Positions 28,412 to 55,141 of a DNA stretch of 64,000 nt are shown piece by piece. The notes under the pieces were generated by a model. It searched no databases, was not told where the DNA came from, and saw only the letters and a list, made by a program, of their open reading frames with translations. How positions within the stretch are numbered: position 1 is the stretch's first letter; each line of letters begins with the position of its first letter. The stretch spans positions 3,520,001-3,584,000 of the forward strand of contig OX638340.1 of the NCBI GenBank assembly GCA_951812955.1, in the 5' to 3' direction. The position numbers and the translations under genes were made by a program. Source of the stretch: an uncultured Gemmatimonadota bacterium (GTDB lineage Bacteria > JAAXHH01).

Positions 28412-29716
28412 TCAGGAAGTTGACGATCGCTGCCTGATCCGGTGCAGCATAGCGATGAGGTGATCACGAAAGACGCTGCCGGCATCGTGTTCGAAGGGAA
28501 GGTGGCGGCAGATGCGCGGCGCGAACACCGCCGCATACCAACCGAAACCTTTCTGGTCGAAGTCCTGTGGCCGCGCGAGGTAACCGACGGTCTCGTTGGC
28601 GTATCCGATTACCAAGGTGTGCGCGAAAGGTGACGCCGCCTGGACCTGTTTGCCGTAGGTCAGGAACAGCTCGAGCGGATGGGCGAGCAGCACGGCGTCG
28701 TTGATACGCATCCACGAAACGTGGAACTCCAGCCTCAGGGGATGGGGGCCGTCGAGCAGTTCAAGACGTTGCACGCGCCAGTCCACTTCGAACCGGAGTT
28801 TTCGAAGTTCCTCGGGTTTCTCGTCGCGCTTGGCGGTCTTGAGGCGATTCCGGTAATCGTCAAGCTCGGTTTCCAGCACGGCGCGGTCAGGCACAGCCGT
28901 GGGCAGGGCGATTTCGTAGGTGTCGCCGTCCAGATCCACGTCGTCGTGGGTCTCGATGCCATCCAGGGCCGGGAGGACGTGATCGCAAAGGAGTGAACCG
29001 TTCGCCTTCATCATCTCCATGCCTTCGCCGAATCCCCGGCAATTTAGATCGCCGCAGCTGCCCTGGAAGAAGAGTGCCCGCAGGTCCTCGCGTTCACTCT
29101 CCATCTTCCCGATGGCGTCGGCCGGATAGTCGCCGCAGATTACGGTGTCGGCGCCGAGCGTGACGGGGTGGGCGCCGAAGTTGATCACGGCCGCGCGCAT
29201 CCGTCCCCGGAGGTCGTCGATGCGCATCAGCAGCGCTTTATCGTCAGCCTCGCCTCCCTCGTCGACCCGGTTGACGGAAAGACCTGGAACGTGCGTCCCG
29301 CCGAACCCCACGCGTCCGGGTTCCAGGTTCGACACGGCCTGCCCGATGGCGTCGGCGAACCGCCCGGGTAACGCCGCCGTGTATTCCTCGTCCCATTTCC
29401 CCCAGGCCACGGTCTTCATGGTGGCTGGACCGGAGTGGGTATGGGTATTGGTGATTATCACGCGGGACGGTTCGAGTCCGAATCGGCTTCGGACGATGCG
29501 GTGGGTTTCGTCGACGAGGGAACGGTCGGTCCAGACCAGGTCGTTCGATACCCATACGTAGATACGATTGCCGTCCGACAGCGCCAGGGCCGTGGCGTGG
29601 AGGTCCTGGTGGACCGCGGTGGACCGCCGCTCGATATAGGGTCCGTAACCGCAGAGCTCAACGCCCGTGGGCGGAGTAATGACGGTTCGGCCCGTGCCGA
29701 ATTGCAACTGGGGCAT
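28412..29716 (-). CDS. neutral/alkaline ceramidase-like hydrolase
   Basis: ITNTHTHSGP and FQGSCGDLN motifs align with the Ceramidase_alk N-terminal catalytic domain. Confidence 0.55.
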   Translation of the reverse strand: MPQLQFGTGRTVITPPTGVELCGYGPYIERRSTAVHQDLHATALALSDGNRIYVWVSNDLVWTDRSLVDETHRIVRSRFGLEPSRVIITNTHTHSGPATMKTVAWGKWDEEYTAALPGRFADAIGQAVSNLEPGRVGFGGTHVPGLSVNRVDEGGEADDKALLMRIDDLRGRMRAAVINFGAHPVTLGADTVICGDYPADAIGKMESEREDLRALFFQGSCGDLNCRGFGEGMEMMKANGSLLCDHVLPALDGIETHDDVDLDGDTYEIALPTAVPDRAVLETELDDYRNRLKTAKRDEKPEELRKLRFEVDWRVQRLELLDGPHPLRLEFHVSWMRINDAVLLAHPLELFLTYGKQVQAASPFAHTLVIGYANETVGYLARPQDFDQKGFGWYAAVFAPRICRHLPFEHDAGSVFRDHLIAMLHRIRQRSSTS

Positions 29717-29757
29717 GGTGGGTTCTGATTTGAGGTGGCGCGGAATTGGACGGACGC

Positions 29758-30780
29758 TCAGTCCGTGAACCGGATCGTCTCGCCCGTCTTTACCGATTCG
29801 GCCTCCGCGTGGCAGATCCGTAGCGCGTCGCGGGCCGCGGCGGCAGACACCAGTTCGGGTTCCGTTCCGTTTTCAAGAGCATTGATGGCGTAGCCCAACT
29901 GGGCCTCGAAGGCCTCGGGGAAATCGATCTCGGGTTCGGTTCTCGCGCCGTCCGGCGTATAGAGCGTGACCGGCCGGTCCGAGAGCACGTTGTACCAGAG
30001 CGTGCCTTCCTCGAAATAGGCGTCGTAGCCGTGTTCGAAGGCGGCCGAACTGATTGCCCCGCACTGGGAGGAGACGGTGAGGTCCCGGCTTTCGTACCCA
30101 TACTGCGTGTTCAGGTAGAGCACGTATCCGTTCGGACTCGTCATGCCATCGGCGTGGACGCTGTCCGGCATGCCGAAGAGGTAGCGCAGATAGTCGGTGT
30201 CGTGTATGTGCAGGTCGATCCCCGCCGCCCCCGTGCGCTCGTAGTCTCCGAACCAGTTGTCCTCGCCCCACAGGGGTTTGGAGATGACCCGCTTGAGGTG
30301 CAACCCGAGGAGGCGTCCGTAGCGTCCATCGTCGATGGCTGCCTTGAGGAACGCGAATTCGGGGAAGAACTTCAGCACGTGGGCGACCATCAGGGTCCTT
30401 CCGGCTTCTCCGGCCCGGGCGATCATGCGGTCCGCCTCGTTCAGTCCGAGGGCGATGGGTTTCTCGACGAGAACGTGTTTGCCGGCATCCAGCGCGCGCA
30501 GGACCACATCGTGGTGCAGGGCCGTGGGCAGGCAAACGTCGACCAGGTCGATATCCGGATCGCCCAGTACCTCTTCGATATCTGTGCAGGTACGGATCCC
30601 GGTCAGGTCCTGTACGCCGCCTCCGCCGCCGAAGTTGCCTTGGATGTGCCGCCAGTCGCCGCTCAGCTTCCGCTCGTCCCGGGTGCAGATGGCCCCCACC
30701 TCCGCGTTGGCCAGGTTCCTGATCGCCATGAAGTGGGTCGTGCCCATGAATCCGATGCCCAGAATGCCGATGCGTATCAA
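29758..30780 (-). CDS. Gfo/Idh/MocA-family oxidoreductase (TTG start after AAGGAGG)
   Basis: LIRIGILGIGFMGTTHF Rossmann N-terminus, EKP motif (HVLVEKPIA), C-terminal alpha/beta domain. Strong SD 6 nt before the TTG; the track's GTG start 13 codons upstream is less likely. Confidence 0.75.
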   Translation of the reverse strand: MIRIGILGIGFMGTTHFMAIRNLANAEVGAICTRDERKLSGDWRHIQGNFGGGGGVQDLTGIRTCTDIEEVLGDPDIDLVDVCLPTALHHDVVLRALDAGKHVLVEKPIALGLNEADRMIARAGEAGRTLMVAHVLKFFPEFAFLKAAIDDGRYGRLLGLHLKRVISKPLWGEDNWFGDYERTGAAGIDLHIHDTDYLRYLFGMPDSVHADGMTSPNGYVLYLNTQYGYESRDLTVSSQCGAISSAAFEHGYDAYFEEGTLWYNVLSDRPVTLYTPDGARTEPEIDFPEAFEAQLGYAINALENGTEPELVSAAAARDALRICHAEAESVKTGETIRFTD

Positions 30781-30883
30781 GTATGTTCCTCCTTTGAACG
30801 GGATGCGCACATCTTTCACGCGCCTTCTTCATCGGGGATGTTTCTTACTTTCTTCGAGGTCCCGGTCTCTCTCTCAGACTACT

Positions 30884-31711
30884 TTAATCCGTCGCGGACG
30901 GCGTGAACAGCAGTTGACCGTGTTTCCGGTAACCGCCGATGAGGGCCTGTGCCTCCGGTGAGGTGACATAGTCAATGAGCGCGCGCGCGTGCCCGTACTT
31001 GACGTGCGGCCAGCGCTCAGGGTTGACGGCGATCATGCTATAGGGGTTGTGCAGCGGGGGATCGTACTCCACCAGGACCCGTAAGTCCACTGTTTCCCGC
31101 AGGGCCAGGTAGGTGCCCCGGTCGATCAGCACGTAACCGCGTTTCTCGTCCGCCATGCGCAAAGTGGCTGCCATGCCCTGGCCCACCTCCACGTACCAGT
31201 CTCCGGCAGGCTCGGTCCCGGCAATGGTCCAGATCGCCCGCTCTTTCTGGTGGGTACCGGATAGATCGCCCCGCGAGAAAAACAACGCTTCCTTGCGCGC
31301 AATGGTGACGAAGGCGTCGGCGACTTTTTCCGTCCCTGCGATCCCGGCCTGATCGGCGGAAGGCCCTACGACGACGAAATCGTTGTACATCACGCTCCGG
31401 CGATTCACGCCGAAGCCGGCGTCGACAAAGGCTTCCTCCAGCTTTGGAGCGTGTACGAGGACCGCGTCCACGTCGCCATTTTCGGCCAGCTTCAGCGCCT
31501 TTCCCGTGCCGACGGCGATGACGTCCACCCGAATCCCACCGTCAGGCTTTCGTTCAAACGGCGGCAGGAGGATGTCGAGCAGGCCCGAATCGTGGGTGCT
31601 GGTGGTCGTTGCCAATTTCAGGCGTGGCTGCGCTTCCGCATCGGGCGCGGTTACTGTGACGGAGGCGACTGCCACAACAAAGAGCAGGGGAAATAGACGA
31701 CGAAGACGCAT
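30884..31711 (-). CDS. TupA/WtpA-like tungstate/molybdate-type periplasmic substrate-binding protein (orphan)
   Basis: Signal peptide. ATTTSTHDSGLLDILLPPFE...VIAVGTGKALKLAENGDVDAVLVHAP...MYNDFVVVGP closely matches TupA. No ABC permease or ATPase genes are adjacent. Confidence 0.7.
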   Translation of the reverse strand: MRLRRLFPLLFVVAVASVTVTAPDAEAQPRLKLATTTSTHDSGLLDILLPPFERKPDGGIRVDVIAVGTGKALKLAENGDVDAVLVHAPKLEEAFVDAGFGVNRRSVMYNDFVVVGPSADQAGIAGTEKVADAFVTIARKEALFFSRGDLSGTHQKERAIWTIAGTEPAGDWYVEVGQGMAATLRMADEKRGYVLIDRGTYLALRETVDLRVLVEYDPPLHNPYSMIAVNPERWPHVKYGHARALIDYVTSPEAQALIGGYRKHGQLLFTPSATD

Positions 31712-31752
31712 GCTGTGGACCGATTCGTGGGCGGCGTTACTCGGGCGGACCG

Positions 31753-32901
31753 TCAGTTCAACCTGAGCATGAACATGACGCGAAGGCGCGTTCGCCACGC
31801 GTTGTTAGCCACGGGCGAGACGTGTGTCTCGGGGGAATCGTACTTGCGGGTGTACAGGTGGATATCGACCGTCAGCTTTTCTATGAGATGATGGCCGAAG
31901 AAGAGGGCGGCGCCTTTCGTATTGGTCTGGGTGTAGTCGATGTTGCTGAAGGGTGCAAGCGTGGCGTCCTGCTGCATGAGATAGGCCTGGAACCCGGTTC
32001 GGGTATCGCCGACCTTCCCCGTGCTGCCGTACATCACCGAACCCGTGATTCCGTGCCGCATGTCGTCGGCCCCGGTGTTGAGTACGTAGTCGGCGTTCAG
32101 CGCCAGCGGCCGTCCGTTCACGGTCTGGGTATACTGGCCGCTGAAGTTGATCATCCTGAATTCGGACAGGTATCCGGTGCGGTCCGCGTTGGGTCGGTTC
32201 GAATTCGCCGCAACGATCAGAGCGGGAGACTTCAGGTTCTGCGCGGCATAGAGGGAATCCGCGCCCCCCACGGTATAGTAGGCGACGGCCAGCGTCTGGG
32301 ACCTGCCGGGCTGGTTAAATCGGGCCATGGCCTGTCCGCCCAGGAAATAGGTACGGTCGAGGTCCTTCACCGGAGAGGCCACCTGGTTGATCATGAACTG
32401 GCCGAAATTCAGGCCGAAGGTCGCGGAGCCGTCAGCGCTCTTCGTGGTGATCTGCTGGGCGAGTCCCTCCGGCGAGAGATCGCTGTCCAGGACGACCTGG
32501 GTAGGCCGGAAGAAGGGCAGGGGAAACTTGCCCGCGGTCAGGGTGAGCGAGGGATTGGGCCTGATGCGCGCGTACATCCAGGAAATATAGGGGTACTCGC
32601 GTTCAAACAGGTCGCCGTAACTCATCCAGTCGGCAACGGTGATCGCCTTGGGATTGCCCGTCATGACCTTGCCGGTCACGTCGATGCGGTCCGTCACGCG
32701 CAGCGTAGCATTCAGGAAGGCCCCGTACATGAAGCGGTTGACCGCCCGGCTGCCGTCCTGATAGTCGCCCTGCAGCCGCGATCTGATCATCCCGTTCCAG
32801 GTGAAACGGTCGTCTTCCTGGGCGGCGACGGGAGCGACGGGAACGACGTTCGTCAACGCGGTGAGAAAAAGGACGCACAACAGGAAGTATCGGATCGGCA
32901 T
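31753..32901 (-). CDS. outer-membrane beta-barrel porin (possibly anion/phosphate-selective OprO/P-like)
   Basis: Signal peptide. Alternating hydrophobic beta-strand pattern. C-terminal ...RLRVMFMLRLN with terminal aromatic-type OMP ending. Adjacent to the binding-protein gene. Confidence 0.45.
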   Translation of the reverse strand: MPIRYFLLCVLFLTALTNVVPVAPVAAQEDDRFTWNGMIRSRLQGDYQDGSRAVNRFMYGAFLNATLRVTDRIDVTGKVMTGNPKAITVADWMSYGDLFEREYPYISWMYARIRPNPSLTLTAGKFPLPFFRPTQVVLDSDLSPEGLAQQITTKSADGSATFGLNFGQFMINQVASPVKDLDRTYFLGGQAMARFNQPGRSQTLAVAYYTVGGADSLYAAQNLKSPALIVAANSNRPNADRTGYLSEFRMINFSGQYTQTVNGRPLALNADYVLNTGADDMRHGITGSVMYGSTGKVGDTRTGFQAYLMQQDATLAPFSNIDYTQTNTKGAALFFGHHLIEKLTVDIHLYTRKYDSPETHVSPVANNAWRTRLRVMFMLRLN

Positions 32902-33406
32902 GGGTTCATCCCCTCCAGTGTACCCGTTCTTTTTTGCTACGTACAGTGGGCCGGAATCGCCGAAACACGCTGGAAATCGATTCATTTAACAGAGGTGAGT
33001 CTTGAACAAGGGATAGTATGGACGCGGTGATTTCGTGTCAAGAAATATCGAAAGGTCTTCTGCCCACGTCGCATGGAATTGAAAAGGCGTCATCGACCCG
33101 GTCCGGCCATCCGATGACCGGTGGGCGACAGACGGCGTCCGAGGGACGACAGGCAGCGTCCGGGGAACTGCGTCAGGTATAATGTTAGAATGAAGCAGGC
33201 GGTTCGGGTGTATCCAGATTGTATACACATATCCGGACGGCACGGCAACTCGTGTTCAGTTACTTTAGGGTTGTCAGGACACCTTCGGCCGGGTATATTC
33301 GACTTCGTTATCGAATCGGACCATCCAGGCGGAATCGGGTGGGTCGATTTCGACCGCGACCGGCGATTATGCGCGGTCGTGTCCATTCATTCCAGGGAGA
33401 ACATTC

Positions 33407-34669
33407 ATGTTGAACAGTATCATGGAGAAAGTCGACTCCGGCCTTTCCCGCCGCCGTTTTCTCACGGGCGCGCTGGCGGCCGGCGCCGCGCTCACTCTGG
33501 CCGATCGCCTTGCCCTAGCCCAGACCATGGCCTCGAGCGGCCTTACCGCCAAGGACATCCACGGGATCGGCGTCGAGCCGGGTCTCGTCCGCATGGCGCT
33601 GAACGAAAACCCGATCGGGCCGTCCCCGATGGCGCTTAAAGCCATCGCCGAGAACATGTTCAAGATCAACCGGTATTCCTTCGGCGGCGGGGACATAACT
33701 GGCGCGCTGGCCGAATTCGACGGGATCGAACTCCCGCCCCCTCGTGAATTGCCGGCCGGTATGCGTGGCATGGGCGGTGGCGGGGGATTCCGTTTCAGGC
33801 GGCAGACGCCCTTCTTCATCACGGCGGGTTCCGGCGCGCTCCTTACCCAGATTGCCCTGGCCTACCTTAGCAAGGGTGGAACCGAGGTGATCGAGGCGGA
33901 CATGGGGTATGGCGATGTGTCGGGTGAGGCCGAAGACTACCAGGAAGCGGGCATCGACGTGAACATCATCCGCGTACCCGTGAAGAACTACGAGCACGAC
34001 CTGGACGCCATGCTCGCGGCGATCACGCCGAAGACCTCCGTGGTGGTCATCACCAACCCGAACAACCCGACCGGGACGCTGCTGTCCTTCGAAGAAACCG
34101 AGAAGTTCGTGAACTCCGTGCCTGAGAACGTGCTCGTGGTCATCGACGAGGCCTACATTCACTTCGTCAAGGACCCGGCGTACCAGACCGCGGCGTCGCT
34201 TGCCACCACACACGACAACGTGATCGTCACGCGGACCTTTTCCAAGGTTTTCGGCATGCCGGGCATGCGCCTCGGGTACGGGATCTGTAGCCAGGCCATC
34301 CAGGAGAAGCTCGGGTTCTACAGCACGGGGCGCGCCAACGCCCTGGCCTACGCCGCGGGCGAGGCTTCGCTCAAGGACAGGAGCCACTACGACCGTTCCC
34401 GGGCGGTGGTCCTGCATTTCAGGGAAAGACTTGAAGAGGAGTTTACGAAGATGGGGCTGGAATTCATCCCGTCGGAAAGCAACTTCATGATGGTCAACCT
34501 GGGCAAGCCCTCCATGAATATCATGCGGGAGATGTTCCGCAAGGGCGTCATGGTGACGAACCGGCGCAGGCAGCAGATGCCCACGTGGATTCGCGTATCC
34601 TCCGGCGACGAGCGGGAAACGGAAGTCTTCCTCAACGTGCTGAAAGAAGTCCTGGGTAAAACCAGCTAG
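33407..34669 (+). CDS. class I/II (HisC-like) PLP aminotransferase with a Tat signal peptide
   Basis: SRRRFLTGALAAGAALTLA Tat signal. LNENPIGPSP, NPNNPTG, RTFSKVFGMPGMRLGY motifs. GGGAGA RBS. Confidence 0.7.
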   Translation: MLNSIMEKVDSGLSRRRFLTGALAAGAALTLADRLALAQTMASSGLTAKDIHGIGVEPGLVRMALNENPIGPSPMALKAIAENMFKINRYSFGGGDITGALAEFDGIELPPPRELPAGMRGMGGGGGFRFRRQTPFFITAGSGALLTQIALAYLSKGGTEVIEADMGYGDVSGEAEDYQEAGIDVNIIRVPVKNYEHDLDAMLAAITPKTSVVVITNPNNPTGTLLSFEETEKFVNSVPENVLVVIDEAYIHFVKDPAYQTAASLATTHDNVIVTRTFSKVFGMPGMRLGYGICSQAIQEKLGFYSTGRANALAYAAGEASLKDRSHYDRSRAVVLHFRERLEEEFTKMGLEFIPSESNFMMVNLGKPSMNIMREMFRKGVMVTNRRRQQMPTWIRVSSGDERETEVFLNVLKEVLGKTS

Positions 34670-34685
34670 CAGCACGGGGCCGCCA

Positions 34686-36020
34686 ATGTCGCAAATCCGC
34701 CTGCCCCTGGTCGTTACGTGGGGCCTGGTCGTCCTGTGGTTCGTGCTGGACGTCACGGCCCTTATGGCGGGCGGCCCATTTAATGTCAACTGGACCATAC
34801 CGGTCGCCGCGGCCTGGCTCTCGGTCGTATGTCTCCGCGCGGGCAGAGGTTACGGCGGGTTCCTGTCCGCGGTTCTGCTCTATACGGCAGGCGTCCGCCT
34901 GCTGATCATACTGCTGGCGATCCTGGGCAAGACGACCGGGCTCGATGGCGCGTACTTCACCTGGGGACGCAGCGCGCTATTCGGCCTGGTCATTCCCCAT
35001 GTCGTGCTGTGGCCGGTCGTCACCTTTATCGCGGGTACGCTGATCTGGCCGGTGACGGCCCTGGTTATGCGCCGGAGACAGGTATCCTATCGAGGCGCGG
35101 CCATGGGCGTTTTGATCATCCTTCTGCTCGTCTTCATCGGCCTGCCCTACCTGATTTCGACCCTGTACACCGGCAGCGTGGGACCTCGCCGCAAGGCGCA
35201 GGACACCCCCGCGGACCACGGGATGGTCTACGAGGACGTCACGCTGACGACTTCCGACGGCCTGAACCTGGCCGCATGGTACGTCCCGAACGAGACCGGC
35301 CGCGGCACGGTCATTTACTGTCACGGCCATCTCAACCACAGGGGTCAGATGCTCGACCAGGCAGCCTTTATTCATGAAAACGGCTTCAATGGGCTCCTGT
35401 TCGATTTCCGGCGGCATGGGGACAGCGAAGGCAATCTGACGACATTCGGCTATTTCGAGTGGCGCGATGCACAGGCGGCCCTGAGATACGCGGTCGACGT
35501 GCGGGGAGAGCAAGGTCCGGTCATTTTGTGGGGTGTTTCCATGGGCGCGGCCACCGCGTTGCTCACGGCAGCTGAAGAGCCCGAGATCGACGCCGTCATC
35601 GCCGAAAGCAGTTTCTACGCGGCCTCCGAAACGCTGCGCGGCGACCTGAACCGGATGTTCGGCCTGCCCACGGTGCCCTTCGGGTTTCTGACGGGTACCA
35701 TAACGGAACTTCGGGTGGGCATCAAGCTTGATGCCCTGGACATCGGCCGCGCGGTGTCCGGCCTGAAGGAAGCTTCCGTGCTTCTGGTGGGCGGCACGGC
35801 GGATCGCCGCATGCCGGTATCGAACAACGAACGGCTATACGACCAGATACCCGGAACGCGCAAGGAGATCTACGTGGTGGAGGGCGCGACCCACGGCGAC
35901 ATTTGGGAAATGGACCGGGAAGCGTACGCGGAGACGGTCCGGCAGTTCCTGGAAAGATATGGTTTGCTCGATGGCCCTGAACCGCCGGCCGGCGAGGAAA
36001 CCGCGGAAGAAACGCTGTAG
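34686..36020 (+). CDS. membrane-anchored alpha/beta-hydrolase (4-5 N-terminal TM helices plus a catalytic domain)
   Basis: Hydrophobic N-terminal 150 aa. HGHLNHRG...GVSMGAA (GxSxG)...ATHGD serine-hydrolase triad pattern. Confidence 0.6.
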
Positions 36021-36039
36021 ATTACGTTGCAGGTTGGCT

Positions 36040-36125
36040 GCTGATAGCGCGGAAGATAACGCCGCAAGTAGCGCTGCGGATAACATTGTAGATAACGCTG
36101 CAAGTAGCACTGCAGATAACTCAGA
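36040..36125. repeat. intergenic tandem repeats rich in GATAAC (gataacgcYgcaagtagcRctgcRgataac...)
   Basis: Direct reading. Lies just upstream of the nitroreductase-family gene start (36145). Confidence 0.7.
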
Positions 36126-36144
36126 AGAAATAAGGGGAACAGGC

Positions 36145-36813
36145 GTGAGCGAACCCGTGTTTCAACCCCTGTCGTCCTACCAGGAATATCCACCCGACGA
36201 GATGGAGCGGCGGGCCGAAGCATTCTACCAGGCGCTTCGCCGCCGGCGCACGGTCCGTGAATTCTCCGACCGGCCCGTGCCGAAATCGATCATCGATCAC
36301 TGCATACTGGCGGCCGGCACGGCGCCCAGCGGCGCGAACATGCAGCCGTGGCATTTTGCCGCGGTGTCCGACCCTGAAATCAAGGCGACGATCCGCGTCG
36401 CCGCAGAGCGGGAGGAACAACAGTTCTACCAGGAGAAGGCGCCGCAGGAGTGGCTCGACGCACTGGCCCCACTGGGTACCGACCAAAACAAACCATTTCT
36501 GGAAACGGCGCCTTGGCTGATCGCGATCTTCGTACAGCGCCACGGCATGCTGCCCGACGGGCGGAGCGTAAAGCACTATTACGCCCTGGAATCGGTGGGC
36601 ATCGCCACGGGGATGCTGATCGCGGCGGTGCACCACGCCGGCCTGGCGTCGCTCACCCACACCCCGAGTCCCATGAACTTCCTGAACCGGCTGCTGGGCA
36701 GGCCGGCCAACGAGCGGCCCTTCCTGCTCCTGGTCGTCGGCTACCCGGCGGAAGGCGCGGAAGTGCCGGTAATCACGAAAAAGCCCCTTGACGACATTGC
36801 CACGTTCGCTTGA
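36145..36813 (+). CDS. nitroreductase-family flavoprotein (iodotyrosine-deiodinase-like subgroup)
   Basis: GTG after [19 protein letters not shown]...[12 protein letters not shown]...[20 protein letters not shown] typical of the NADH-oxidase/nitroreductase fold. Confidence 0.7.
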
Positions 36814-36886
36814 AGCACGGTGCAGGTGCCTGAAGCGCGGCGCGGCGGCCTGAAGTGCGGCGAAGCAAGGGAAATAAGGAGGTATC

Positions 36887-37762
36887 ATGCGCGGGTCGAT
36901 CGTACCGGTGGTTACACCCTTCAGGAACGGGTCGCTGGACCTGGACGGACTGGCCGGACTGGTCGATTGGCAGATCCGGAGCGGTTCCCACGGCGTTTCG
37001 GTTCAGGGGACGACGGGCGAGCCGGGTTCGCTATCCCTCGAAGAGCGCAAGGAGGTGATCCGCGCCGCGTCCGCGGCGGTGGACGGCAGGGTGCCCTTCG
37101 TTCCGGGCAGCGCATCCGCCAACCACGAGGAGTCCATCGAACTCTCTCGCTTCGCGCAGGCCCATGGCGCCGACGCGCTGCTGTTCATCGCGCCGTACTA
37201 CAGCCGGCCCGGCCAGGAAGGGATATATCGTCATTTCGACGCGTTGGCCAAATGCGTGGACCTTCCCGTAATCCTGTACAATATCCCGGGCCGCACGGCC
37301 GTCAACATCGAGATCGATACCGTGGCGCGGCTGAAGGAGGCCAACGACAATCTCATCGGCGTCAAGGAGTCGAACAAGGATTTCGAGCACATCAACCGCC
37401 TGCTGCACCGCATGGGCAGGGACTTCCTGGTGTACTCGGGGATCGAACTGCTTTGCTATCCCATTCTCGCAATCGGCGGGGCGGGATTCGTGAGCGCAAC
37501 GGGCAATCTGATGCCAGTGGAAGTCGCGCGACTGTACGACCTGGTCCAGGAAGGGAAATGGCTGGAGGCGCGCGAACTCCACTACCACATGATGACGCTC
37601 AACGACGCCGTGTTCATGGAGATCAACCCGGTTCCTGTCAAGACGGCCCTGGGCATGATGGGCAAGATCAGCCCGGAGGTCAGGCTGCCCCTTGCGCCGT
37701 TGTCGGACCGCAACCGCGAAAAACTGCGCGGGATCCTGGCGGACTACGGACTGATCCGGTAA
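36887..37762 (+). CDS. DapA-family (4-hydroxy-tetrahydrodipicolinate synthase / dihydrodipicolinate-synthase-like) lyase
   Basis: AAGGAGG RBS. VPVVTPF...GTTGE...YNIPGRT...active-site Lys region (GVKES). Confidence 0.85.
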   Translation: MRGSIVPVVTPFRNGSLDLDGLAGLVDWQIRSGSHGVSVQGTTGEPGSLSLEERKEVIRAASAAVDGRVPFVPGSASANHEESIELSRFAQAHGADALLFIAPYYSRPGQEGIYRHFDALAKCVDLPVILYNIPGRTAVNIEIDTVARLKEANDNLIGVKESNKDFEHINRLLHRMGRDFLVYSGIELLCYPILAIGGAGFVSATGNLMPVEVARLYDLVQEGKWLEARELHYHMMTLNDAVFMEINPVPVKTALGMMGKISPEVRLPLAPLSDRNREKLRGILADYGLIR

Positions 37763-37812
37763 CCGGCCGCGGCGCGGAGCCATTGGCTGTCGGCCCGTTT
37801 TCCGGTACGCAC

Positions 37813-38838
37813 ATGTCGAAAACAACCTACCGTCTGCATTACAACGAGAACCCCCTCGGTCCCTCTCCGGTGGTGATGGACCGGATCCGGGATCACCTGG
37901 CGGGACTCAGCCTCTACCCGCACCGGGACGACGAAGCGTTGCGAGACTGCCTGGCGGCGTTCTATGGCAGGGGAGTGACGCCTGCGCACCTGTTCTCGAC
38001 ATATAGCGGCTCCGAAGCCCTGGATCTCATCGCGCGGGTTTACCTGGAACCGGGCGACGAGGTCATCGTCTGCGGACCGACCTTCCACGTTTACGCACGG
38101 ACGGCCGAGTGGCAGGGCGCGAAGATCGTCGACGTACCGCTGGACAACCAGGATTTCAGCGTCCGGGTCGACGCGGTCATGCGGGCGGTTACGCCCCGGA
38201 CGCGCCTGGTCTACGTGGGCAATCCTAACAATCCGACGGGGTCGATCGTCACCCGGGACGACATGGACCTGCTCCATATGGGGCTGCCCGACCAGGTGAC
38301 CCTGATATCCGACGAAGTATACCACCACTTCGTGACGCGTCCGGACTACCCGGATTCGCTGGCAAGTGTCGCGGCGGGACGGAACTTGATCGTCCTCCAT
38401 TCTTTCTCGAAGGTCTACGGTTTGGCCGGTCTTCGCGTGGGCGTGGCGATCTCCCGTCCCGACATCATCGACCGGCTGGCGAGATACCGCAGGACCTTCC
38501 ACCTGGGTACGCTGGAGATGGAGGCGGCCATCGCGGCCGTTGGCGACCCGGACCACGTGGCGCGATCCGTGGCGATGGCGGAGCGGGGCAAGAAAAGATG
38601 CTATGCCGCCTTCGATCGTTTGAGGATTACATACTGGCCCAGTGAAGGCAACTTTATCCTGTTCCGAACGCCCATGTTCGCGGACGATCTCGCCGCGCGC
38701 ATGGCCGACCGGGGCATTCTCGTGGGTTCGGGCAGCCGTTTCGGCCTGACGCATGCCATCCGGGTCAGCATCGGGCTCCCGGAAGCCAACCAGGCTTTCA
38801 TTTCGGCCCTTGAGCATATTCTGGCCGACGAAAGTTAG
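37813..38838 (+). CDS. hisC: histidinol-phosphate aminotransferase-like class II aminotransferase
   Basis: LHYNENPLGPSP, GNPNNPTG, HSFSKVYGLAGLRVG. The ORF track's 36820 start is an artefactual upstream extension across the DapA-like gene. Confidence 0.8.
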   Translation: MSKTTYRLHYNENPLGPSPVVMDRIRDHLAGLSLYPHRDDEALRDCLAAFYGRGVTPAHLFSTYSGSEALDLIARVYLEPGDEVIVCGPTFHVYARTAEWQGAKIVDVPLDNQDFSVRVDAVMRAVTPRTRLVYVGNPNNPTGSIVTRDDMDLLHMGLPDQVTLISDEVYHHFVTRPDYPDSLASVAAGRNLIVLHSFSKVYGLAGLRVGVAISRPDIIDRLARYRRTFHLGTLEMEAAIAAVGDPDHVARSVAMAERGKKRCYAAFDRLRITYWPSEGNFILFRTPMFADDLAARMADRGILVGSGSRFGLTHAIRVSIGLPEANQAFISALEHILADES

Positions 38839-38865
38839 CATGCGCGTACCGTCGGGCGACGCCAT

Positions 38866-39005
38866 TCGGTCGCCCTTGCGCCGCCGGTCACCCAGGCGCC
38901 GCCTTTCGGTCGATCTGGCACCGCGTTCTGGTCGATCTGGCGCCGCGTTCCGGTCGTCCTTGCGCTGCCTTTCGGTCGATCTGGCGCCGCGTTCCGGTCG
39001 TCGAC
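38866..39005. repeat. intergenic tandem repeats (unit ~ggtcgatctggcRccgcgttcYggtcg, 3-4 copies)
   Basis: Direct reading. Between hisC-like and the class-III aminotransferase. Confidence 0.75.
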
Positions 39006-39077
39006 AATCAGCGGTATGCCTGCCGCCGACGTCAGGTATATCCGAGCGAAAACTGACAATAGCACGAAGGGAAACGC

Positions 39078-40373
39078 ATGTCACAGACCGCATTGATCGA
39101 ACGGGCGGAAAAAGTCTTCGTCGGCGGGTCGAACGGGGAATTCCGTCTCCCGCCGGAAGCCAACCTTGTGGTGACCCACGGCGATGGCGCGATGATCTAT
39201 GACGCCTCCGGGCGTGAATACGTCGACTTCCTCCTGGGTTCCGGCCCCATGATCCTCGGTCACGGCCATCCGGAAGTCGTGACGGCGGTGACGCGCCAGG
39301 TAGCCCGGGGCACCACCTTCATGGCCCTCAACGAGCCGGCCATCCGGCTGGCCGAACGGGTGGTGGACGCCTCGCCATGTGGGGAGAAGGTACGCCTGGT
39401 AATCACCGGATCCGAATCGATTCAGTTCGCCCTGCGGGCCGCCCGGGCCTTCACGGGCCGCGACCGCTGCCTGCGTTTCGAAGGGGGTTGGCACGGCGTG
39501 AGCGATTCGGCACTGCACGGGGCGAGGACGCTGGATCCCGGCGACTATCCTGACACCCTGCCGGACGGCGGCGGCATTCCGCGGAACTGGTCGGCGGACA
39601 TGCTCGCCGCGCCCTTCAACGACGTGGGCCGGGCCACCGAAATCGTGGAACGCCACCACGGCGAACTCGCCGCAATCGTCATCGAGCCCCTCCAGCGATG
39701 TATCCTGCCCCGTCCGGGTTTCTTCGAGGCCATGCGGGCATTGTGCGACCGGCACGGCATCGTCCTCATCTTCGACGAGATTGTCACGGGTTTCCGCATG
39801 GCCTGGGGCGGGGCCCAGGAACGTTACGGCGTGACCGCGGACCTGGCGGCATACGGCAAGACGATCAGCGGCGGATATCCCCTGGCCGCCATGTGCGGCC
39901 GGTCGGACGTGATGGACGTCATGAACGGCTGGCGTCCGGCCGACGATCCGAAACGGGTCATCGCATCGGGCACTTTCAACGGCTATCCCGTGGGCGCCGT
40001 CGCCGGACTGGCCACCCTCGACGTGTTGGAACGGCCCGGGACCTACAAGCGGCTTTTCGCCATGGGCGACCGCGTTACCCGGGAGATCACGGCCATGGGC
40101 GAGCGGCTTTCGGTCCCCCTCCTCGTCGGCGGCGAAGGGCCCGTGCTCCAGGTATTGTTCACCAGCGAAAAGGAAATCGTCGACTACGGATCCATGTTTC
40201 GCGCCGACAAGCAGAAGGCCTATGTCTTCGGCGTCGAGATGATCAAGCGTGGGCTCTTCGTCAGTCCCTACGAGAAGATCTATCTGTCCCTGGTCCATAC
40301 GGACGGTCACGTCGACCGTCTCCTGGAGACGGCGGAGGAAGTGTTGCGGGACGTGATCGCGAAAATGGATTGA
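39078..40373 (+). CDS. class III PLP aminotransferase (glutamate-1-semialdehyde 2,1-aminomutase-like)
   Basis: DFLLGSGPMILGHGHPEV, FDEIVTGFR, AAYGKTISGGYPLAA (PLP Lys) motifs. Confidence 0.8.
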   Translation: MSQTALIERAEKVFVGGSNGEFRLPPEANLVVTHGDGAMIYDASGREYVDFLLGSGPMILGHGHPEVVTAVTRQVARGTTFMALNEPAIRLAERVVDASPCGEKVRLVITGSESIQFALRAARAFTGRDRCLRFEGGWHGVSDSALHGARTLDPGDYPDTLPDGGGIPRNWSADMLAAPFNDVGRATEIVERHHGELAAIVIEPLQRCILPRPGFFEAMRALCDRHGIVLIFDEIVTGFRMAWGGAQERYGVTADLAAYGKTISGGYPLAAMCGRSDVMDVMNGWRPADDPKRVIASGTFNGYPVGAVAGLATLDVLERPGTYKRLFAMGDRVTREITAMGERLSVPLLVGGEGPVLQVLFTSEKEIVDYGSMFRADKQKAYVFGVEMIKRGLFVSPYEKIYLSLVHTDGHVDRLLETAEEVLRDVIAKMD

Positions 40374-40444
40374 ACGGGTGCGGAGACGGCCGCCCGATAC
40401 CTGGTATGGCGGCCCGAACAAACGATTAGAGAGGGAGCAAACCC

Positions 40445-41167
40445 ATGAAAAACGTCCTCCTCCTGGGCGCCTCGGGCAACATCGCGCCGTACATCATCCC
40501 AGGCCTGGAGCAACACTACAATCTGCGCCTGGCCGATATCCGTCCCCATCCGGGCGGCAAGCCCACGAAGCAGGTAGACATGGGCGACTACGGGCAGGTG
40601 CTGGAAGCCGCCCGCGACATGGACGCCATCATGAACTGGACCGTGGTCCGGCAGGATCCTGTGGCCAGTTTCGCCGTGTCCGTCCGGGGCGCATGGCACG
40701 TGATGAAGGCGGCGGCCGAACTCGGTATTACGAAGATCCTGCACACGGGCCCTGAGATCATCATTCCCGGCTATCTCCACGACCACGACATCGGCGACGT
40801 GCCCCAGGCGCCGGGCACGGGCTACTATATGCTGACCAAGCACCTGGCCATGGAGATTTGCAGAATCTACGCCCGCCAGTACAGGATACACACCGTGTGC
40901 TACCAGTTCAACGGACTGGGACCCATGCCCGAAGAGCCGGTAAAGAACGCCGACCACCCGCCCTTCACCATCGTCTACGACGACCTGGTGGAGGCCTGCC
41001 GGCTGGCCCTGGAAATCGATGAAGTGCCGGACTATTTCCAGGCTTTCAACATGGGCAGCTATTTGCAGCAGGGCAAATACACCATCGACAAGGCCCGGCG
41101 CATCCTCGGCTACGAGCCACGGACCAACCCCCAGCGATTCTACAGGCGGCCGGTGGCGGACGCATGA
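40445..41167 (+). CDS. NAD(P)-dependent epimerase/dehydratase (SDR-type Rossmann) family protein
   Basis: LLLGASGNIAPYII glycine-rich N-terminus and YxxxK-type region (YYMLTKHLAME). Confidence 0.6.
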   Translation: MKNVLLLGASGNIAPYIIPGLEQHYNLRLADIRPHPGGKPTKQVDMGDYGQVLEAARDMDAIMNWTVVRQDPVASFAVSVRGAWHVMKAAAELGITKILHTGPEIIIPGYLHDHDIGDVPQAPGTGYYMLTKHLAMEICRIYARQYRIHTVCYQFNGLGPMPEEPVKNADHPPFTIVYDDLVEACRLALEIDEVPDYFQAFNMGSYLQQGKYTIDKARRILGYEPRTNPQRFYRRPVADA

Positions 41168-42288
41168 AGATCACGCGGTTCGAGGTCATTCCCCTGAAGC
41201 AGCGCGGCCTGCTGCTCAAGGTGCATACCGATTCGGAACTCGTGGGTTACGGATCGCCCATGAATTACGAACACGGCCGCACGGTCGCCCGGGCCATCCA
41301 TGACATGGAAGACTACCTCGTGGGCCGTGATCCCCGGCAGATCGAGGATCACTGGCAGACGCTGTTCCGGTCGAGCTACAGCCGCCAGATGCCCATCATG
41401 CTGTCCGCGCTGAGCGGAATTGAACACGCATGTCTCGATATTCTTGGAAAATCGCTGGACGAGCCGGTGTGGCGCCTGCTGGGCGGCTCATGCCGGGAAC
41501 GCGTTCGGGTATACGCGTCCGTCGGCGGTCCGTCGCCGGAAGCATACGCGAAGCACGCCAGGGAACGGGTGGCGGAAGGGTATACCGCACTGAAGTGCAC
41601 GCCCTTTCCCGACCCAGTCCGATACGTGGATACCCCTGCGGCCATGGAGCGGATCGTCGCCCGCGTCGCCGCGATCCGCGAAGCCGTGGGACCGGAGATC
41701 GACGTCGCCGTGGACTTCCACCGGGCCGTCAGTCCGGCCATGGCGAAACGCCTCCTGAGGGAACTGGAACCCCTGAAACCTTTTTTCGTCGAGGAACCCG
41801 CCCACCCGGAAAACGTCGACGCCCTGCTCGAGATCACCCGGTCCACCACCATCCCCATCGCCACCGGCGAGCGGAACACGACCCGATGGGGCTTCCGGGA
41901 ACTGGTGGAGAAGAAGGCCGCGGCGATCCTGCAGCCGGACGTGCGCCACTGCGGGGGGATCCTGGAGATGAAGAAGATCGCGTCCCTTGCCGAGGTCCAT
42001 TACGCGGCCTTGGCACCCCACTCCGCGGCCGATCCGGTCGGCGTGGCCGCGTCCCTGCAGGCCGTGGCCGGTACGCCAAATTTCCTTATCCAGGAGTATG
42101 GCGGCGGCGCGGGAGAAACGCTGTTTACCAAACCCCTGGTCTTCAAGGATGGTTACGTGGAATTGCCGACCGGCCCCGGCCTCGGCATCGAGATATCTGA
42201 AACGGGCCTCGCGGCCAACACGGCAACCGAATGGCGCCTGCGAAACATGCGCCGCGACCCGGACGACCATTCCTATTCCGATATCTGA
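41164..42288 (+). CDS. D-galactonate dehydratase-like enolase-superfamily protein (MR/MLE family)
   Basis: ATGA overlap with the previous gene. MKITRFEVIP...GYGSP...LSGIEHACLDILGK...VDFHRAVSPAMAK...TGERNTT... aligns along DgoD. Confidence 0.8.
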   Translation: MKITRFEVIPLKQRGLLLKVHTDSELVGYGSPMNYEHGRTVARAIHDMEDYLVGRDPRQIEDHWQTLFRSSYSRQMPIMLSALSGIEHACLDILGKSLDEPVWRLLGGSCRERVRVYASVGGPSPEAYAKHARERVAEGYTALKCTPFPDPVRYVDTPAAMERIVARVAAIREAVGPEIDVAVDFHRAVSPAMAKRLLRELEPLKPFFVEEPAHPENVDALLEITRSTTIPIATGERNTTRWGFRELVEKKAAAILQPDVRHCGGILEMKKIASLAEVHYAALAPHSAADPVGVAASLQAVAGTPNFLIQEYGGGAGETLFTKPLVFKDGYVELPTGPGLGIEISETGLAANTATEWRLRNMRRDPDDHSYSDI

Positions 42289-42305: not shown

Positions 42306-43202
42306 ATGACTGAACAACACACGCGCTCGACATCTCCACTCACCCGGGAACCCGTACGCCTGGCGAGCGTCCTGTGCCTGGGTATTTTCGCGTTTGTGTG
42401 CGTCGCGGCACCCGGCTGCGCTTCGGAGCCGGATCCATCGGCGTCAACCCCGGATCCCGAAGACCGCAGCAGGGAAGTTCTCGCCACGGCGGCGGGACAT
42501 GCTTCCGCCGCGACCGCCGCCGAAACGATCTGGACGCCGCCACGGCCCCGGTCCGTCCATGAGCGTCGCGATGAGCGGGAACGCATGGTTGGGGAGATCC
42601 TGGACAAGTCTCCCATGGTGACGGACGCAGCCGTGCTCCGGGCCATGACGGACGCGCCTCGCCACGTGTTCGTCCACGAACAGACGCGGCGTCTCGCCTA
42701 CGACGATACGCCCCTGCCCATCGGGCTTGGACAGACCATTTCCCAACCCTATATCGTGGCCTACATGACCGAACTGCTCGAATTGGACTCCGATTCGAGG
42801 GTCCTGGAGATTGGCACCGGATCGGGTTACCAGGCCGCCGTGCTCGCCCACCTGACCCCCCACGTATACACCATGGAAATCATCGAACCCCTGTTGGAAC
42901 GGGCCCGCGGCCTGCTTTCTGAGGAAGGGTATGACTCGGTCCGGACCCGCCATGGCGACGGCTATTTCGGGTGGCCGGAGGCGGGCCCCTTCGACGCCAT
43001 CATCGTCACCTGCGCCGCCGGCCATCTCCCGCCCCTCCTGTGGTCCCAGCTCAGGCCCGGCGGCCGCATCGTTATTCCCATCGGCGAGATGACGGGGGTG
43101 CAGCGGCTGGTCGTCGTACAGAAGACCGCGGACGGAGCGCGGACCTCCCGCACCGTCTTGCCCGTACGATTCGTGCCCATGACAGGCCGGGTCGAACAGT
43201 GA
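42306..43202 (+). CDS. pcm: protein-L-isoaspartate O-methyltransferase with an N-terminal lipoprotein-type signal
   Basis: VLEIGTGSGYQAAVLA SAM motif. GRIVIPIGE post-II motif. N-terminal hydrophobic stretch ending ...AAPGCASEP. Confidence 0.8.
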   Translation: MTEQHTRSTSPLTREPVRLASVLCLGIFAFVCVAAPGCASEPDPSASTPDPEDRSREVLATAAGHASAATAAETIWTPPRPRSVHERRDERERMVGEILDKSPMVTDAAVLRAMTDAPRHVFVHEQTRRLAYDDTPLPIGLGQTISQPYIVAYMTELLELDSDSRVLEIGTGSGYQAAVLAHLTPHVYTMEIIEPLLERARGLLSEEGYDSVRTRHGDGYFGWPEAGPFDAIIVTCAAGHLPPLLWSQLRPGGRIVIPIGEMTGVQRLVVVQKTADGARTSRTVLPVRFVPMTGRVEQ

Positions 43203-48767: not shown

Positions 48768-49838
48768 TCAAGCGCTCATGCGCGGGATGACTTCATTCAC
48801 GAAGAGGTCCATGCTGTGGAGCCAGGCTTCCTTGTCGTCCCAGTCGTATCCCATGAGGATCAGCGTGCCGAAGTCCCCCGTCTCCTCCCGCATCGCGTCC
48901 AGCCGGCGGACCACCTCGTCCACGTCCCCGTGGATGATCTGTTCCGTCATCAGGTAGTCCAGGTTGCACTGCGAATCCGGCAAGTCCGGGTCCCGCTTGA
49001 GCATCTTCCGACCCAGTCCCTGGTCGAAGAGGCCGCCCAGGTATTCGAAGCCCCGGCCCAGAGAATTGGTGCGCACTTTCGTTGCCGCTTCCTCCTTGCT
49101 GTCGGCGAGGAAGATGCTGCGGCAGATGCGCCAGTCTTCGCGGTCGGGCGTGCGCCCGGCGTCCTGGGCCGCCTGTTCGTAAACCCGCCAGTTGTCGGCT
49201 ACGACGTTGCCCGGTGAAATGTTGGCGCTGATGGGAAACCAGCCCTTCTCACCCGCGATCCTCATGGTGGAGGAGTTCATGCTCATCCCGGGGGCGCCAA
49301 TGGGCGGATGCGGCTGTTGCAGGGGCTTGTGGATATAGCCGATCAGCGTGTCGCGGTCCACGTTCTCTTCCAGGTCGATCTCCCAGAAACGGCCCTTCAG
49401 GTGATAGGGCGGGTCCTGGCTCCAGATCTGCAGGATCATCTCCGCCGACTCGGCGGCCATGGCGCTGTTGAGCTTCGGATCGATCTTATAAAGTTCCAGG
49501 TCCGTTGTCACGCTGCCGGGGCCGAAGCACAGGTTGAGCCGTCCGTGGGAAAGCTGGTCCATGAAGGCCAGCCGGCTGGCCACGTGGGCCGGGTGGTGAT
49601 AGGGCAGGCAGGTGGGCGCCGTGCCAAGCCGGATGGTGTGGGTCATGGCAAGGGCCTTGCCTATGAAGGCCTCGGGCAGCACGATGTTCTCGTACTTCAT
49701 GGTATGGTGTTCGCCGATCCAGAACTCGGTGAAACCCAGCTCTTCGCAGCGCACGATCAGTTCCAGGTCCTCGTCGTGGCACTGTGCGGCCGGCTTGACC
49801 GGGTCGTGGAAGGGCATGATGAACATCCCGTATTTCAT
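48768..49838 (-). CDS. LLM-class flavin-dependent oxidoreductase (luciferase-like monooxygenase), paralog 1
   Basis: MKYGMFIMPFHDP...EELGFTEFWIGEHH...RLNLCFGPGS. ATG at 49838; the upstream ORF-track extension is rejected. Confidence 0.75.
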   Translation of the reverse strand: MKYGMFIMPFHDPVKPAAQCHDEDLELIVRCEELGFTEFWIGEHHTMKYENIVLPEAFIGKALAMTHTIRLGTAPTCLPYHHPAHVASRLAFMDQLSHGRLNLCFGPGSVTTDLELYKIDPKLNSAMAAESAEMILQIWSQDPPYHLKGRFWEIDLEENVDRDTLIGYIHKPLQQPHPPIGAPGMSMNSSTMRIAGEKGWFPISANISPGNVVADNWRVYEQAAQDAGRTPDREDWRICRSIFLADSKEEAATKVRTNSLGRGFEYLGGLFDQGLGRKMLKRDPDLPDSQCNLDYLMTEQIIHGDVDEVVRRLDAMREETGDFGTLILMGYDWDDKEAWLHSMDLFVNEVIPRMSA

Positions 49839-50012
49839 ATCTGATTCTCCGGTGTTGGTCCTGATTCGTGCCGGCGTTGTCTGAACCCGGCCGGCCTGGG
49901 GACGATGATTCGATGCCGGTTTCCCGCGTTTCCTCTCAGCCCCGTAGCCACGTCCTTCCCGCTCGGTAACGCGCACCTACCCGCTCGGTAACGCGTATGC
50001 GCACCTTCCCGC

Positions 50013-51101: not shown

Positions 51102-51134
51102 ATTGGACTCCGAAACGCTGTTAGATCGCCGTAC

Positions 51135-53895: not shown

Positions 53896-53987
53896 TTGTT
53901 ATTCTCCCAACTAGCTGTCCTGTTCCGAATCGAAGGCAGGCCGCGTCAGTCGCGAAACCGGCCGCTATGCCAAATCTGGTGGGTGGT

Positions 53988-55001: not shown

Positions 55002-55141
55002 GGCCGCCGTGCAGAAGTCCGACAGGGGTTCGGGTGGAGTCCGCAGAACGTAGAGTTGATCTGACGTGTGTGTCTGGTTGGCGTCGGTGCCCAGCGCTGG
55101 TGCCTTTCTAGCCGCCGCGGTGTCCTGCCTGCCGCAGTATG

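Follow-up and report, generated by a model that had tools for sequence, protein, structure and literature searches.

Eight adjacent genes in a marine Gemmatimonadota-like bacterium may form a string of loosely connected modules that includes a Tat-signal aminotransferase and an iodotyrosine deiodinase ortholog

We analyzed a window of 64,000 nucleotides (nt) from contig OX638340.1 (assembly GCA_951812955.1) of an uncultured Gemmatimonadota bacterium, in which eight plus-strand open reading frames (ORFs), designated g1 to g8, fill positions 33407-42288. With moderate confidence, we read this run of a marine, Gemmatimonadota-like bacterium as lineage-specific, with at least three modules strung together by loose connections. 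The first would be an extracytoplasmic pair, g1 and g2, consisting of an aminotransferase with a twin-arginine translocation (Tat) signal and a membrane hydrolase. The second, g3-g4-g5, centers on an ortholog of iodotyrosine deiodinase (IYD) and may serve (halo)tyrosine catabolism in the cytoplasm, while the third, g6-g7 with or without g8, appears to be accessory. We favor this patchwork because the module boundaries match the pattern of gene loss and replacement in relatives. What we observed were family identities, signal-peptide conservation, active-site residues, and gene neighborhoods in relatives.

A preliminary description of this DNA, made from the sequence, had reported a same-strand run of eight genes here. 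The run was borne out, as the ORFs show the pattern of real genes in their G+C content by codon position (GC3>GC1>GC2), with a window G+C of 55-68%. Scans with Pfam and NCBIfam returned the same family as that description for every one of the eight genes, and the ATGA overlap that it noted between g7 and g8 lies at 41164-41167. From g1 to g8, the spacers are 16, 124, 73, 50, 239, 71, and -4 nt. The genes and the other features of the run are listed in Table 1.

Table 1. Predicted genes and other sequence features in and around the g1-g8 run (positions are those of the window; aa, amino acids)
Feature	Position	Strand	Description
g1	33407..34669	+	420 aa; class I/II aminotransferase, HisC fold, Tat signal
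g2	34686..36020	+	444 aa; about five N-terminal transmembrane helices and an alpha/beta hydrolase (Hydrolase_4); 16 nt downstream of g1
g3	36145..36813	+	222 aa; nitroreductase fold, IYD ortholog; GTG start
g4	36887..37762	+	291 aa; DHDPS family, DapA-like HpaI-type class I aldolase (4-hydroxy-2-oxoheptanedioate / 2,4-dihydroxyhept-2-ene-1,7-dioate aldolase group)
g5	37813..38838	+	341 aa; cytoplasmic HisC-family aminotransferase
g6	39078..40373	+	431 aa; class III aminotransferase, glutamate-1-semialdehyde-aminomutase-like subgroup
g7	40445..41167	+	240 aa; short atypical short-chain dehydrogenase/reductase (SDR)/epimerase, YxxxK
g8	41164..42288	+	374 aa; enolase-superfamily acid-sugar dehydratase (DgoD model); ATGA overlap with g7
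Promoter-like TTGTCA-17-TATATT	33271..33299	+	upstream of g1; consensus match only, may not be the promoter type of the phylum
Divergent promoter-like site	33041-33013	-	porin gene; consensus match only, may not be the promoter type of the phylum
22-bp tandem repeat	38855-39000		6.8 copies; most of the 239-nt g5-g6 spacer; consensus GGCGCCGCCTTTCGGTCGACCT

To compare relatives, we collected gene neighborhoods around g1 homologs (long contigs) and g4 homologs (metagenomes) and searched every locus with all window proteins. The full set g1-g8 was present in L178 and L179, where g1 is 95% identical to ours and g7 and g8 stand 105 nt apart. L001 and L180 (g1 at 86% and 83%) carry g1-g7, and L091 (82%) carries g1 followed by g3-g7, with g2 absent and leaving no remnant. 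In L003-5 (77%), g1 and g2 are followed by a PhyH gene, g3, g4, g5, a thiamine pyrophosphate (TPP)-dependent enzyme gene that overlaps g5 by 4 nt, an unknown gene, HpaG, and HpaE, with g6-g7 replaced. Farther out, the only members of the set in L006 and L007 (58%) are g2 and a tandem trio of g1 paralogs, and L008 and L009 (49%) hold g1 alone. The homolog in L170 (48%) lies beside an Opp-type ATP-binding cassette (ABC) transporter, and that in L010 (37%) lies after a cytoplasmic class III aminotransferase. In L172 (42%; 5588-9272), a Gluconate_2-dh3 small subunit with a Tat signal (LSRRSFLS) and a signal-less GMC flavoprotein (an oxidoreductase) precede g1, which could be a periplasmic dehydrogenase-plus-transaminase operon.

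The run had been described as one cluster; as a unit of eight genes, it is not co-conserved. The gene g8 was deleted twice, g2 is absent from L091, and g6 and g7 are absent from L003, whereas the sub-blocks g1+g2 and g3-g4-g5 did hold together. Agreement among the nearest relatives reflects shared ancestry and gives no evidence for an operon, since the whole 25-kb region is syntenic there, flanks included. L001, L178, and L180 have the flanking order of the window: upstream, genes for a saccharopine-dehydrogenase-like protein, PPK2, a phosphodiesterase, a ceramidase-like protein, GFO, PBP_like_2, and a porin; downstream, a protein-L-isoaspartate O-methyltransferase (PCMT) and a large membrane protein. 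Outside the clade, g1, g3, and g4 homologs each have unrelated neighbors.

The best-supported functional core is g3-g4-g5. In all five lineages sampled, this trio stayed together despite gains and losses of genes to either side, and it suggests (halo)tyrosine catabolism that feeds a homoprotocatechuate (hpa) route. The arrangement in L003 supports this reading. There, the gene overlapping the g5 ortholog is of the TPP-dependent 2-oxo-acid decarboxylase type (PRK08266, 752 bits; next best, 5-guanidino-2-oxopentanoate decarboxylase), and the HpaG and HpaE genes scored 306 bits (cutoff, 276) and 587 bits (from a truncated sequence), respectively. The predicted enzymes read as a coherent route from an amino acid to a 2-oxo acid, an aldehyde, and the hpa pathway.

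For g3, the GTG at 36145 is most likely the true start, rather than the annotated ORF start at 35959, because an AAGGGG site precedes it and the relatives are 218-224 aa long. The protein matched IYD of Haliscomenobacter hydrossis (HhIYD; PDB 5KO7) end to end (257 bits over 212 residues) and mammalian IYD at 185 bits, and it belongs to the length class of the mesophilic bacterial IYDs (PMC8668982). In these enzymes, Glu, Tyr, and Lys of the active-site lid bind the halotyrosine zwitterion and a Thr lies near N5 of the flavin mononucleotide; these residues define halotyrosine specificity (PMC8668982). All of them aligned and are intact in g3. Against 5KO7/4TTB, EQQFY aligned with EFESY/EEINY, NKPFLE with HKPFLE/IKEYLD, and LTHTP with LTHTP/VTTTP. 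We class g3 as a close ortholog of a validated bacterial IYD, with predicted dehalogenase activity, and the suggestion of a halo-amino acid substrate in the preliminary description was a good one for this gene.

The g3 homologs at 72-77% identity form a very large group, almost all of about 222 aa. We checked IYD neighborhoods in three other lineages for aminotransferase, aldolase, and hydrolase partners and found unrelated neighbors, with a weak SDR similarity in one; a literature search on the gene context of bacterial IYD returned nothing relevant. The need of bacteria for a halotyrosine deiodinase “is not easily rationalized,” and their exposure to halotyrosines is unstudied (PMC8668982). 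In this genome and in four related lineages, g3 adjoins genes for a HisC-family aminotransferase and an aldolase of the hpa type, unlike the IYD homologs sampled in other phyla. We also observed that the PhyH-family gene just upstream of the IYD gene in L003 (13105-13830) scores 121 bits on TIGR01762, the “chlorinating enzyme” model, whose cutoff is 226. The adjacency of a halogenase-like fold to a dehalogenase is suggestive, although the match may be a generic PhyH one.

The neighboring g4 scored 380.4 bits on TIGR02313, the “HpaI-NOT-DapA” model for the DapA-like aldolases that replace HpaI in the 4-hydroxyphenylacetate/homoprotocatechuate pathway, which is just under the cutoff of 396.7. 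An ortholog inside the complete hpa cluster of L119 scored 386.1 bits, also under the cutoff. The cutoff therefore appears strict for these lineages, and g4 is as good a member as proteins of unambiguous context. It carries the DHDPS-type motifs GTTGE, YNIPGRT, and VKES and scored 287 bits on dapA (cutoff, 206) and 112-137 bits on the 2-keto-3-deoxygluconate (KDG)/NanA models. Orthologs at 61-83% identity occur in 4-hydroxyphenylacetate clusters in L003, L093, L099, L100, L108, and L119, and the neighbors of such orthologs include HpaG, HpaE, HpaB, HpaC, and HpaD. Metagenomic g4 homologs at 57-77% identity with enough flank to judge had no g1-g8 neighbors. At each of six loci examined, such a homolog is followed by FAA-hydrolase/HpaG and aldehyde dehydrogenase/HpaE-type genes, and those of L119, L093, and L108 also come with HpaB, HpaC, and/or an extradiol dioxygenase. 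A role for g4 as the dapA of a dapA-dapB operon was considered and rejected, because the genes of about 250 aa that follow its orthologs encode FAA-hydrolase/HpaG and not DapB.

The third member, g5, is read here as a putative aromatic amino-acid (Tyr) aminotransferase. It scored 253.4 bits on the hisC model TIGR01141 against a cutoff of 276.55 (with a query four residues short of the full protein). Only about 10 residues precede NENP, and most of the N-terminal arm is absent, the arm whose Tyr in HisC contacts, together with an Arg pair, the phosphate of histidinol phosphate. A Phe aminotransferase (4R2N, 145 bits) and a HisC (3FFH, 147 bits) are PDB matches of equal quality. HisC and the HisC-family aromatic aminotransferases (Mycobacterium tuberculosis Rv3772, PDB 4R2N) share with both g1 and g5 the fold, NENP, TNPNNPTG, the SxSK Schiff-base lysine, and the C-terminal Arg. 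In contrast to HisC, both fall under the equivalog cutoff and neither lies among his genes, and g1 is predicted to be exported as well. The preliminary description had set the run apart from histidine and lysine biosynthesis, and we agree: g5 and g6 are under the equivalog cutoffs, and g4 orthologs lie in 4-hydroxyphenylacetate clusters and not beside dapB.

Taken together, these assignments suggest a cytoplasmic route in which g3 would reductively dehalogenate iodo-, bromo-, or chlorotyrosine to tyrosine and g5 would transaminate tyrosine to 4-hydroxyphenylpyruvate. Decarboxylation and oxidation to 4-hydroxyphenylacetate and meta-cleavage of homoprotocatechuate would then depend on genes outside the window, after which g4 would cleave 4-hydroxy-2-oxoheptanedioate to pyruvate and succinic semialdehyde. 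The substrates and the order of steps here, like the topology of g2 and the links between modules, are what we infer.

The Tat signal that had been called on g1 is real. The signal peptide covers aa 1-38 (nt 33407-33520), an N-terminus of SRRRFLTGALAAGAALTLADRLALA before Q, also given as MLNSIMEKVDSGLSRRRFLTGALAAGAALTLADRLALA before QT. It includes SRRRFLT, GALAAGAALTLA, and DRLALA before Q, with an Ala/Gly-rich h-region, an Arg in the c-region, and an A-L-A site. The S/T-R-R-x-F-L-K-type motif, moderately hydrophobic h-region, and A-x-A site of Tat substrates are all present. A search of 5.8 billion proteins gave g1 homologs from 97% down to 42% identity, named by their source as Gemmatimonadetes, Latescibacteria, or candidate-division metagenome-assembled genome (MAG) proteins. 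RR-x-F is kept in the same place in 111 of the 120 best homologs (42-97% identity); of the other nine, at least five carry a Sec-type signal peptide instead, and the remainder are truncated at the N-terminus. Since so many keep the motif and several others carry a Sec-type signal, export is a predicted property conserved in the g1 family, and the Tat motif is no chance match. For the homologs P0086, P0087, P0103, P0106, and P0108, which have Sec-type signals and no twin arginine, loading of pyridoxal phosphate (PLP) outside the cytoplasm would be required. PhoX in the window (56027-57535) also has a Tat signal; thus, the organism very likely has a Tat pathway.

The PLP residues of g1 (N219/N220, D247, Y250, K280, and R396) are invariant across 38 family members, and the catalytic lysine was found in all three aminotransferases of the run (SKVFG, SKVYG, and YGKTISGG). 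An AlphaFold model of g1 (pLDDT, 85.8) has high confidence except in the signal peptide and in a Gly-rich insertion, specific to the g1 family, that is disordered at aa 122-130. The best Foldseek matches of the model were HisC 3FFH and the uncharacterized 3LY1 (“putative HisC,” from structural genomics; TM score, 0.87), which confirmed a HisC fold but did not point to a specificity. The scores of g1 fall below the curated cutoffs of HisC (TIGR01141, 204.8 bits against 276.55), the pyoverdine transaminase PtaA (NF051461, 185.9 against 500), and the exported aminotransferase subfamily PRK09105 (NF006580, 229.2 against 444).

PtaA and PvdN of Pseudomonas are established Tat-exported PLP enzymes that act in the periplasm, and PtaA homologs occur in pyoverdine nonproducers, where their roles are unknown (PMC6206403). 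Periplasmic transamination by a Tat-exported, cofactor-loaded PLP enzyme, drawn as an implication in the preliminary description, is therefore not new. PtaA, the periplasmic transaminase A of fluorescent Pseudomonas, is like g1 a HisC-fold PLP enzyme with a twin-arginine signal; it is exported folded with its cofactor and is active outside the cytoplasm (PMC6206403), as predicted for g1. The PtaA and PRK09105 models match g1 across the catalytic domain (186 and 229 bits), the PRK09105 match coming in two stretches split by the g1-specific insertion. Unlike PtaA, g1 scores far under both cutoffs, comes from another phylum, carries the Gly-rich insertion, and has a conserved membrane-hydrolase partner; none is known for PtaA. 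No pvd-like genes were present in the window, and the relatives are Gemmatimonadota and Latescibacteria MAGs.

Other searches with g1 added little. An exact-match lookup in the contig index gave no match, and tblastn against a plasmid collection gave annotated hisC genes only. A profile scan of genomes with the g1-family alignment latched onto generic HisC motifs (TNPNNPTG and RTFSK); its 80 hits were hisC loci at 29-37% identity, mostly cytoplasmic, whose neighborhoods were uninformative. The gene in L024 was tried as a PtaA and rejected, as it has the pheA-hisC2-tyrA-aroA context of Pseudomonas. The porin and PBP_like_2 genes upstream were tried as a periplasmic partner system for g1; in L003 they are part of a complete oxyanion-type ABC transporter, and they look unrelated. 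We also observed a second candidate exported PLP enzyme in the window, a 459-aa SelA-like/class-V-fold protein at 1412-2791 (+; Pfam SelA, 34 bits; Aminotran_5, 25 bits) with the Tat-like N-terminus FNRRGFLKIGALAGVAGVAAANC. It lies between genes for a CxxCxxCC protein (955-1419) and an AIR-synthase-related protein (2806-4014).

The predicted partner of g1, g2, has a C-terminal esterase/S33-like domain with the nucleophile elbow GVSMG (GxSxG) and a downstream Asp and His. Its best PDB match is the esterase 5G59 (73 bits), and it resembles esterases and monoglyceride lipases only distantly. Five hydrophobic segments are common to four g2 orthologs. Seven Lys or Arg residues fall in the N-terminus and in loops 2-3 and 4-5, which are predicted to be cytoplasmic, versus two in the other loops. 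These counts tentatively place the N-terminus inside and the hydrolase domain in the periplasm. The adjacency of g1 and g2 was kept in L001, L003-5, and L178-180 and, without any of g3-g8, in L006 and L007. In the latter two (L006 8904-14591 and L007 4513-10200), three tandem exported aminotransferase paralogs, 53-58% identical to g1 and all with Tat signals, precede a g2-type hydrolase.

The pair g1+g2 thus survives the deepest divergence and probably acts on an extracytoplasmic amino compound. We propose that g1 would fold and bind PLP in the cytoplasm before export by Tat. Anchored by about five transmembrane helices, g2 may free the amino compound from an ester or amide conjugate, and g1 may then move its amino group to a periplasmic 2-oxo acid, remove it, or act as a cofactor-only lyase or decarboxylase.

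The remaining genes, g6-g7 with or without g8, may provide an accessory omega-transaminase-type enzyme, a small dehydrogenase, and an acid-sugar dehydratase. The protein encoded by g6 is under the cutoffs of hemL (TIGR00713, 323.8 against 527.3 bits), PRK00062 (337.7 against 398), and GntE (306 against 525), with further resemblance to GntE, D-phenylglycine transaminases, and beta-transaminases. Uronate dehydrogenases were the best PDB hits of g7, at a very weak 29 bits. The genes g6 and g7 always come as a pair, restricted to relatives whose g1 shares at least 82% identity. On the galactonate dehydratase model PRK14017 (DgoD, enolase superfamily), g8 scored 382.1 bits over positions 1-371 and passed the cutoff of 311; in contrast to DgoD, it has no dgoK or dgoA context. 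It is intact only in L178/L179, the 95% relatives. L001 keeps the last 50 nt or so of g8 and L180 about the first 40 nt; thus, the gene was ancestral to the clade and was deleted twice independently. By these remnants, g8 is demonstrably dispensable.

Several points weigh against the modular reading as we have drawn it. No homolog of hpaB, hpaC, hpaD, hpaE, or hpaG was found in the 64-kb window, which leaves g4 without its pathway partners here and weakens the (halo)tyrosine reading of g3-g5. Because g4 passes the dapA cutoff and falls just under that of TIGR02313, it could serve or double as DapA. Likewise, g5 is nearly as HisC-like as a true HisC, and its aromatic specificity is putative. 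The link of IYD with an aminotransferase and an aldolase was seen in one clade only, where the flanks are equally syntenic, and IYD homologs of other phyla have unrelated neighbors. For the extracytoplasmic pair, the periplasmic orientation of g2 is tentative because it rests on a crude charge count and RRK follows the last transmembrane helix.

These points bear on the alternatives that we weighed against the modular reading. The genes may form no functional unit at all and instead be unrelated paralogs, some perhaps housekeeping genes (dapA and hisC), that sit in a genome rich in enzyme families and appear conserved by plain synteny. The same order of flanking genes in the same relatives favors this view, as do the g4 score over the dapA cutoff and the presence in the window of another enolase-superfamily gene, three luciferase-like monooxygenases, two HpcH/HpaI aldolases, and two GFO oxidoreductases. 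However, g1 and g2 remained adjacent after the rest of the neighborhood had changed, g3-g4-g5 did so across all five lineages despite turnover on both sides, and in L003, g3-g5 lie with HpaG and HpaE and with a decarboxylase gene whose translation is coupled to that of g5. We therefore regard a run without any functional unit as unlikely, while giving it real weight.

We are more doubtful of the opposite extreme, a single pathway that would catabolize or salvage an amino sugar or a hydroxy- or halo-amino acid, beginning with periplasmic hydrolysis and transamination and ending with the dehydratase and aldolase. The shared strand, the close spacing (-4 to 124 nt apart from the one spacer of 239 nt), the g7/g8 overlap, and the complete set in L178/L179 all fit such a pathway, in which g7, g8, and g4 could be a dehydrogenase, dehydratase, and aldolase series. 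Yet the overlap is replaced by a gap of 105 nt in L178, and close relatives have deleted g8 twice and, in L091, lost g2. Moreover, hpa genes take the place of g6/g7 in L003, g1 and g2 stand alone at 58% identity, and g3 and g4 homologs elsewhere never come with other genes of the set. An integrated pathway is thus quite unlikely, and for the amino-sugar route of the preliminary description we found no evidence. A narrower version, in which g4, g7, and g8 make up a nonphosphorylative sugar-acid route (sugar or uronate dehydrogenase, acid-sugar dehydratase, and 2-keto-3-deoxy-acid aldolase) fed with amino-sugar acids by the aminotransferases, is very improbable in our view. It draws on the galactonate dehydratase match of g8, the uronate dehydrogenase matches of g7, the KDG-type aldolases in the DHDPS family, and distant g1 homologs near enolase-superfamily, SDR, and PhyH genes and beside a periplasmic GMC dehydrogenase. 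Against it stand the weakness of the g7 matches, the dispensability of g8, the 61-83% identity of g4 to aldolases within hpa clusters, and its low scores on the KDG/NanA models.

Within the run, we found no convincing internal promoter, and terminator-like sites in the window were not more frequent than in shuffles. An Rfam scan for regulatory RNA in the window gave solely a tRNA (62283-62356). Within the window, the 22-bp repeat is confined to the spacer between g5 and g6; the 95% relative L178 lacks it and has a g5-g6 spacer of 41 nt. A 20-bp repeat of 2.8 copies lies between g3 and g4 (36811-36866).

The surroundings of the run also held several features of their own. Upstream of g1 on the minus strand (26368-32985) is a conserved divergent block encoding a Porin_5 porin, PBP_like_2, a GFO/IDH/MocA oxidoreductase, a protein with a neutral-ceramidase-like N-terminal domain, and a type I phosphodiesterase. 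Downstream of g8, the PCMT (42306-43202, +) has a hydrophobic N-terminal segment ending in APGC, and such a lipobox-like N-terminus is odd for an S-adenosylmethionine-dependent enzyme. It is followed by a polytopic membrane protein of about 810-900 aa with no Pfam match and an uncertain start, ending at 45682. A paralog-rich catabolic stretch on the minus strand (48768-52223 and 53038-55987) encodes three tandem luciferase-like monooxygenases, then a nucleoside deoxyribosyltransferase-like protein, two HpcH/HpaI-family aldolases, and an Ldh_2 dehydrogenase. Near the start of the window (4602-6980, 9083-14005, and 14064-18176, +), an LRR/CARDB protein and two giant proteins (1640 and 1370 aa) have in common an N-terminal signal ending in the lipobox-like L(V/L)(V/T)(T/R)CG(K/R)D(S/T)PT.

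All enzymes of the run belong to kinds already known, as does transamination in the periplasm by Tat-dependent enzymes. Neither of the questions raised here alters which kinds of system are known. What is new is modest: a distinct and widespread subfamily of HisC-fold enzymes that are predicted to be exported and have a hydrolase as partner, and a clade-specific genomic link of a bacterial IYD to tyrosine/hpa catabolism. Members of the g1 family appear paired with a membrane hydrolase predicted to face the periplasm, beside a Tat-dependent periplasmic GMC dehydrogenase, or in tandem triplicate. One could go further and join the two. On that view, g1 and its roughly 100 sampled relatives (from Gemmatimonadota, Latescibacteria, and other uncultured marine phyla) would be a distinct exported PLP family that processes nonimportable amino compounds outside the cytoplasm, for example, to scavenge nitrogen by transamination onto exported 2-oxo acids. 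Here, g1 and g2 would work with the cytoplasmic IYD-aminotransferase-hpa route on halogenated tyrosine derivatives of the sort that sponges and algae make. We consider this combined reading highly speculative; if true, it would give bacterial IYD its first physiological role. The conserved partnership of g1 with a membrane hydrolase is an experimental handle on Tat-exported aminotransferases outside pyoverdine producers. The placement of IYD beside a predicted tyrosine-type aminotransferase and an hpa aldolase in one marine clade, joined in one relative by a 2-oxo-acid decarboxylase, HpaG, and HpaE, suggests that dehalogenation feeds tyrosine catabolism and offers a testable answer to the question of why bacteria keep IYD.

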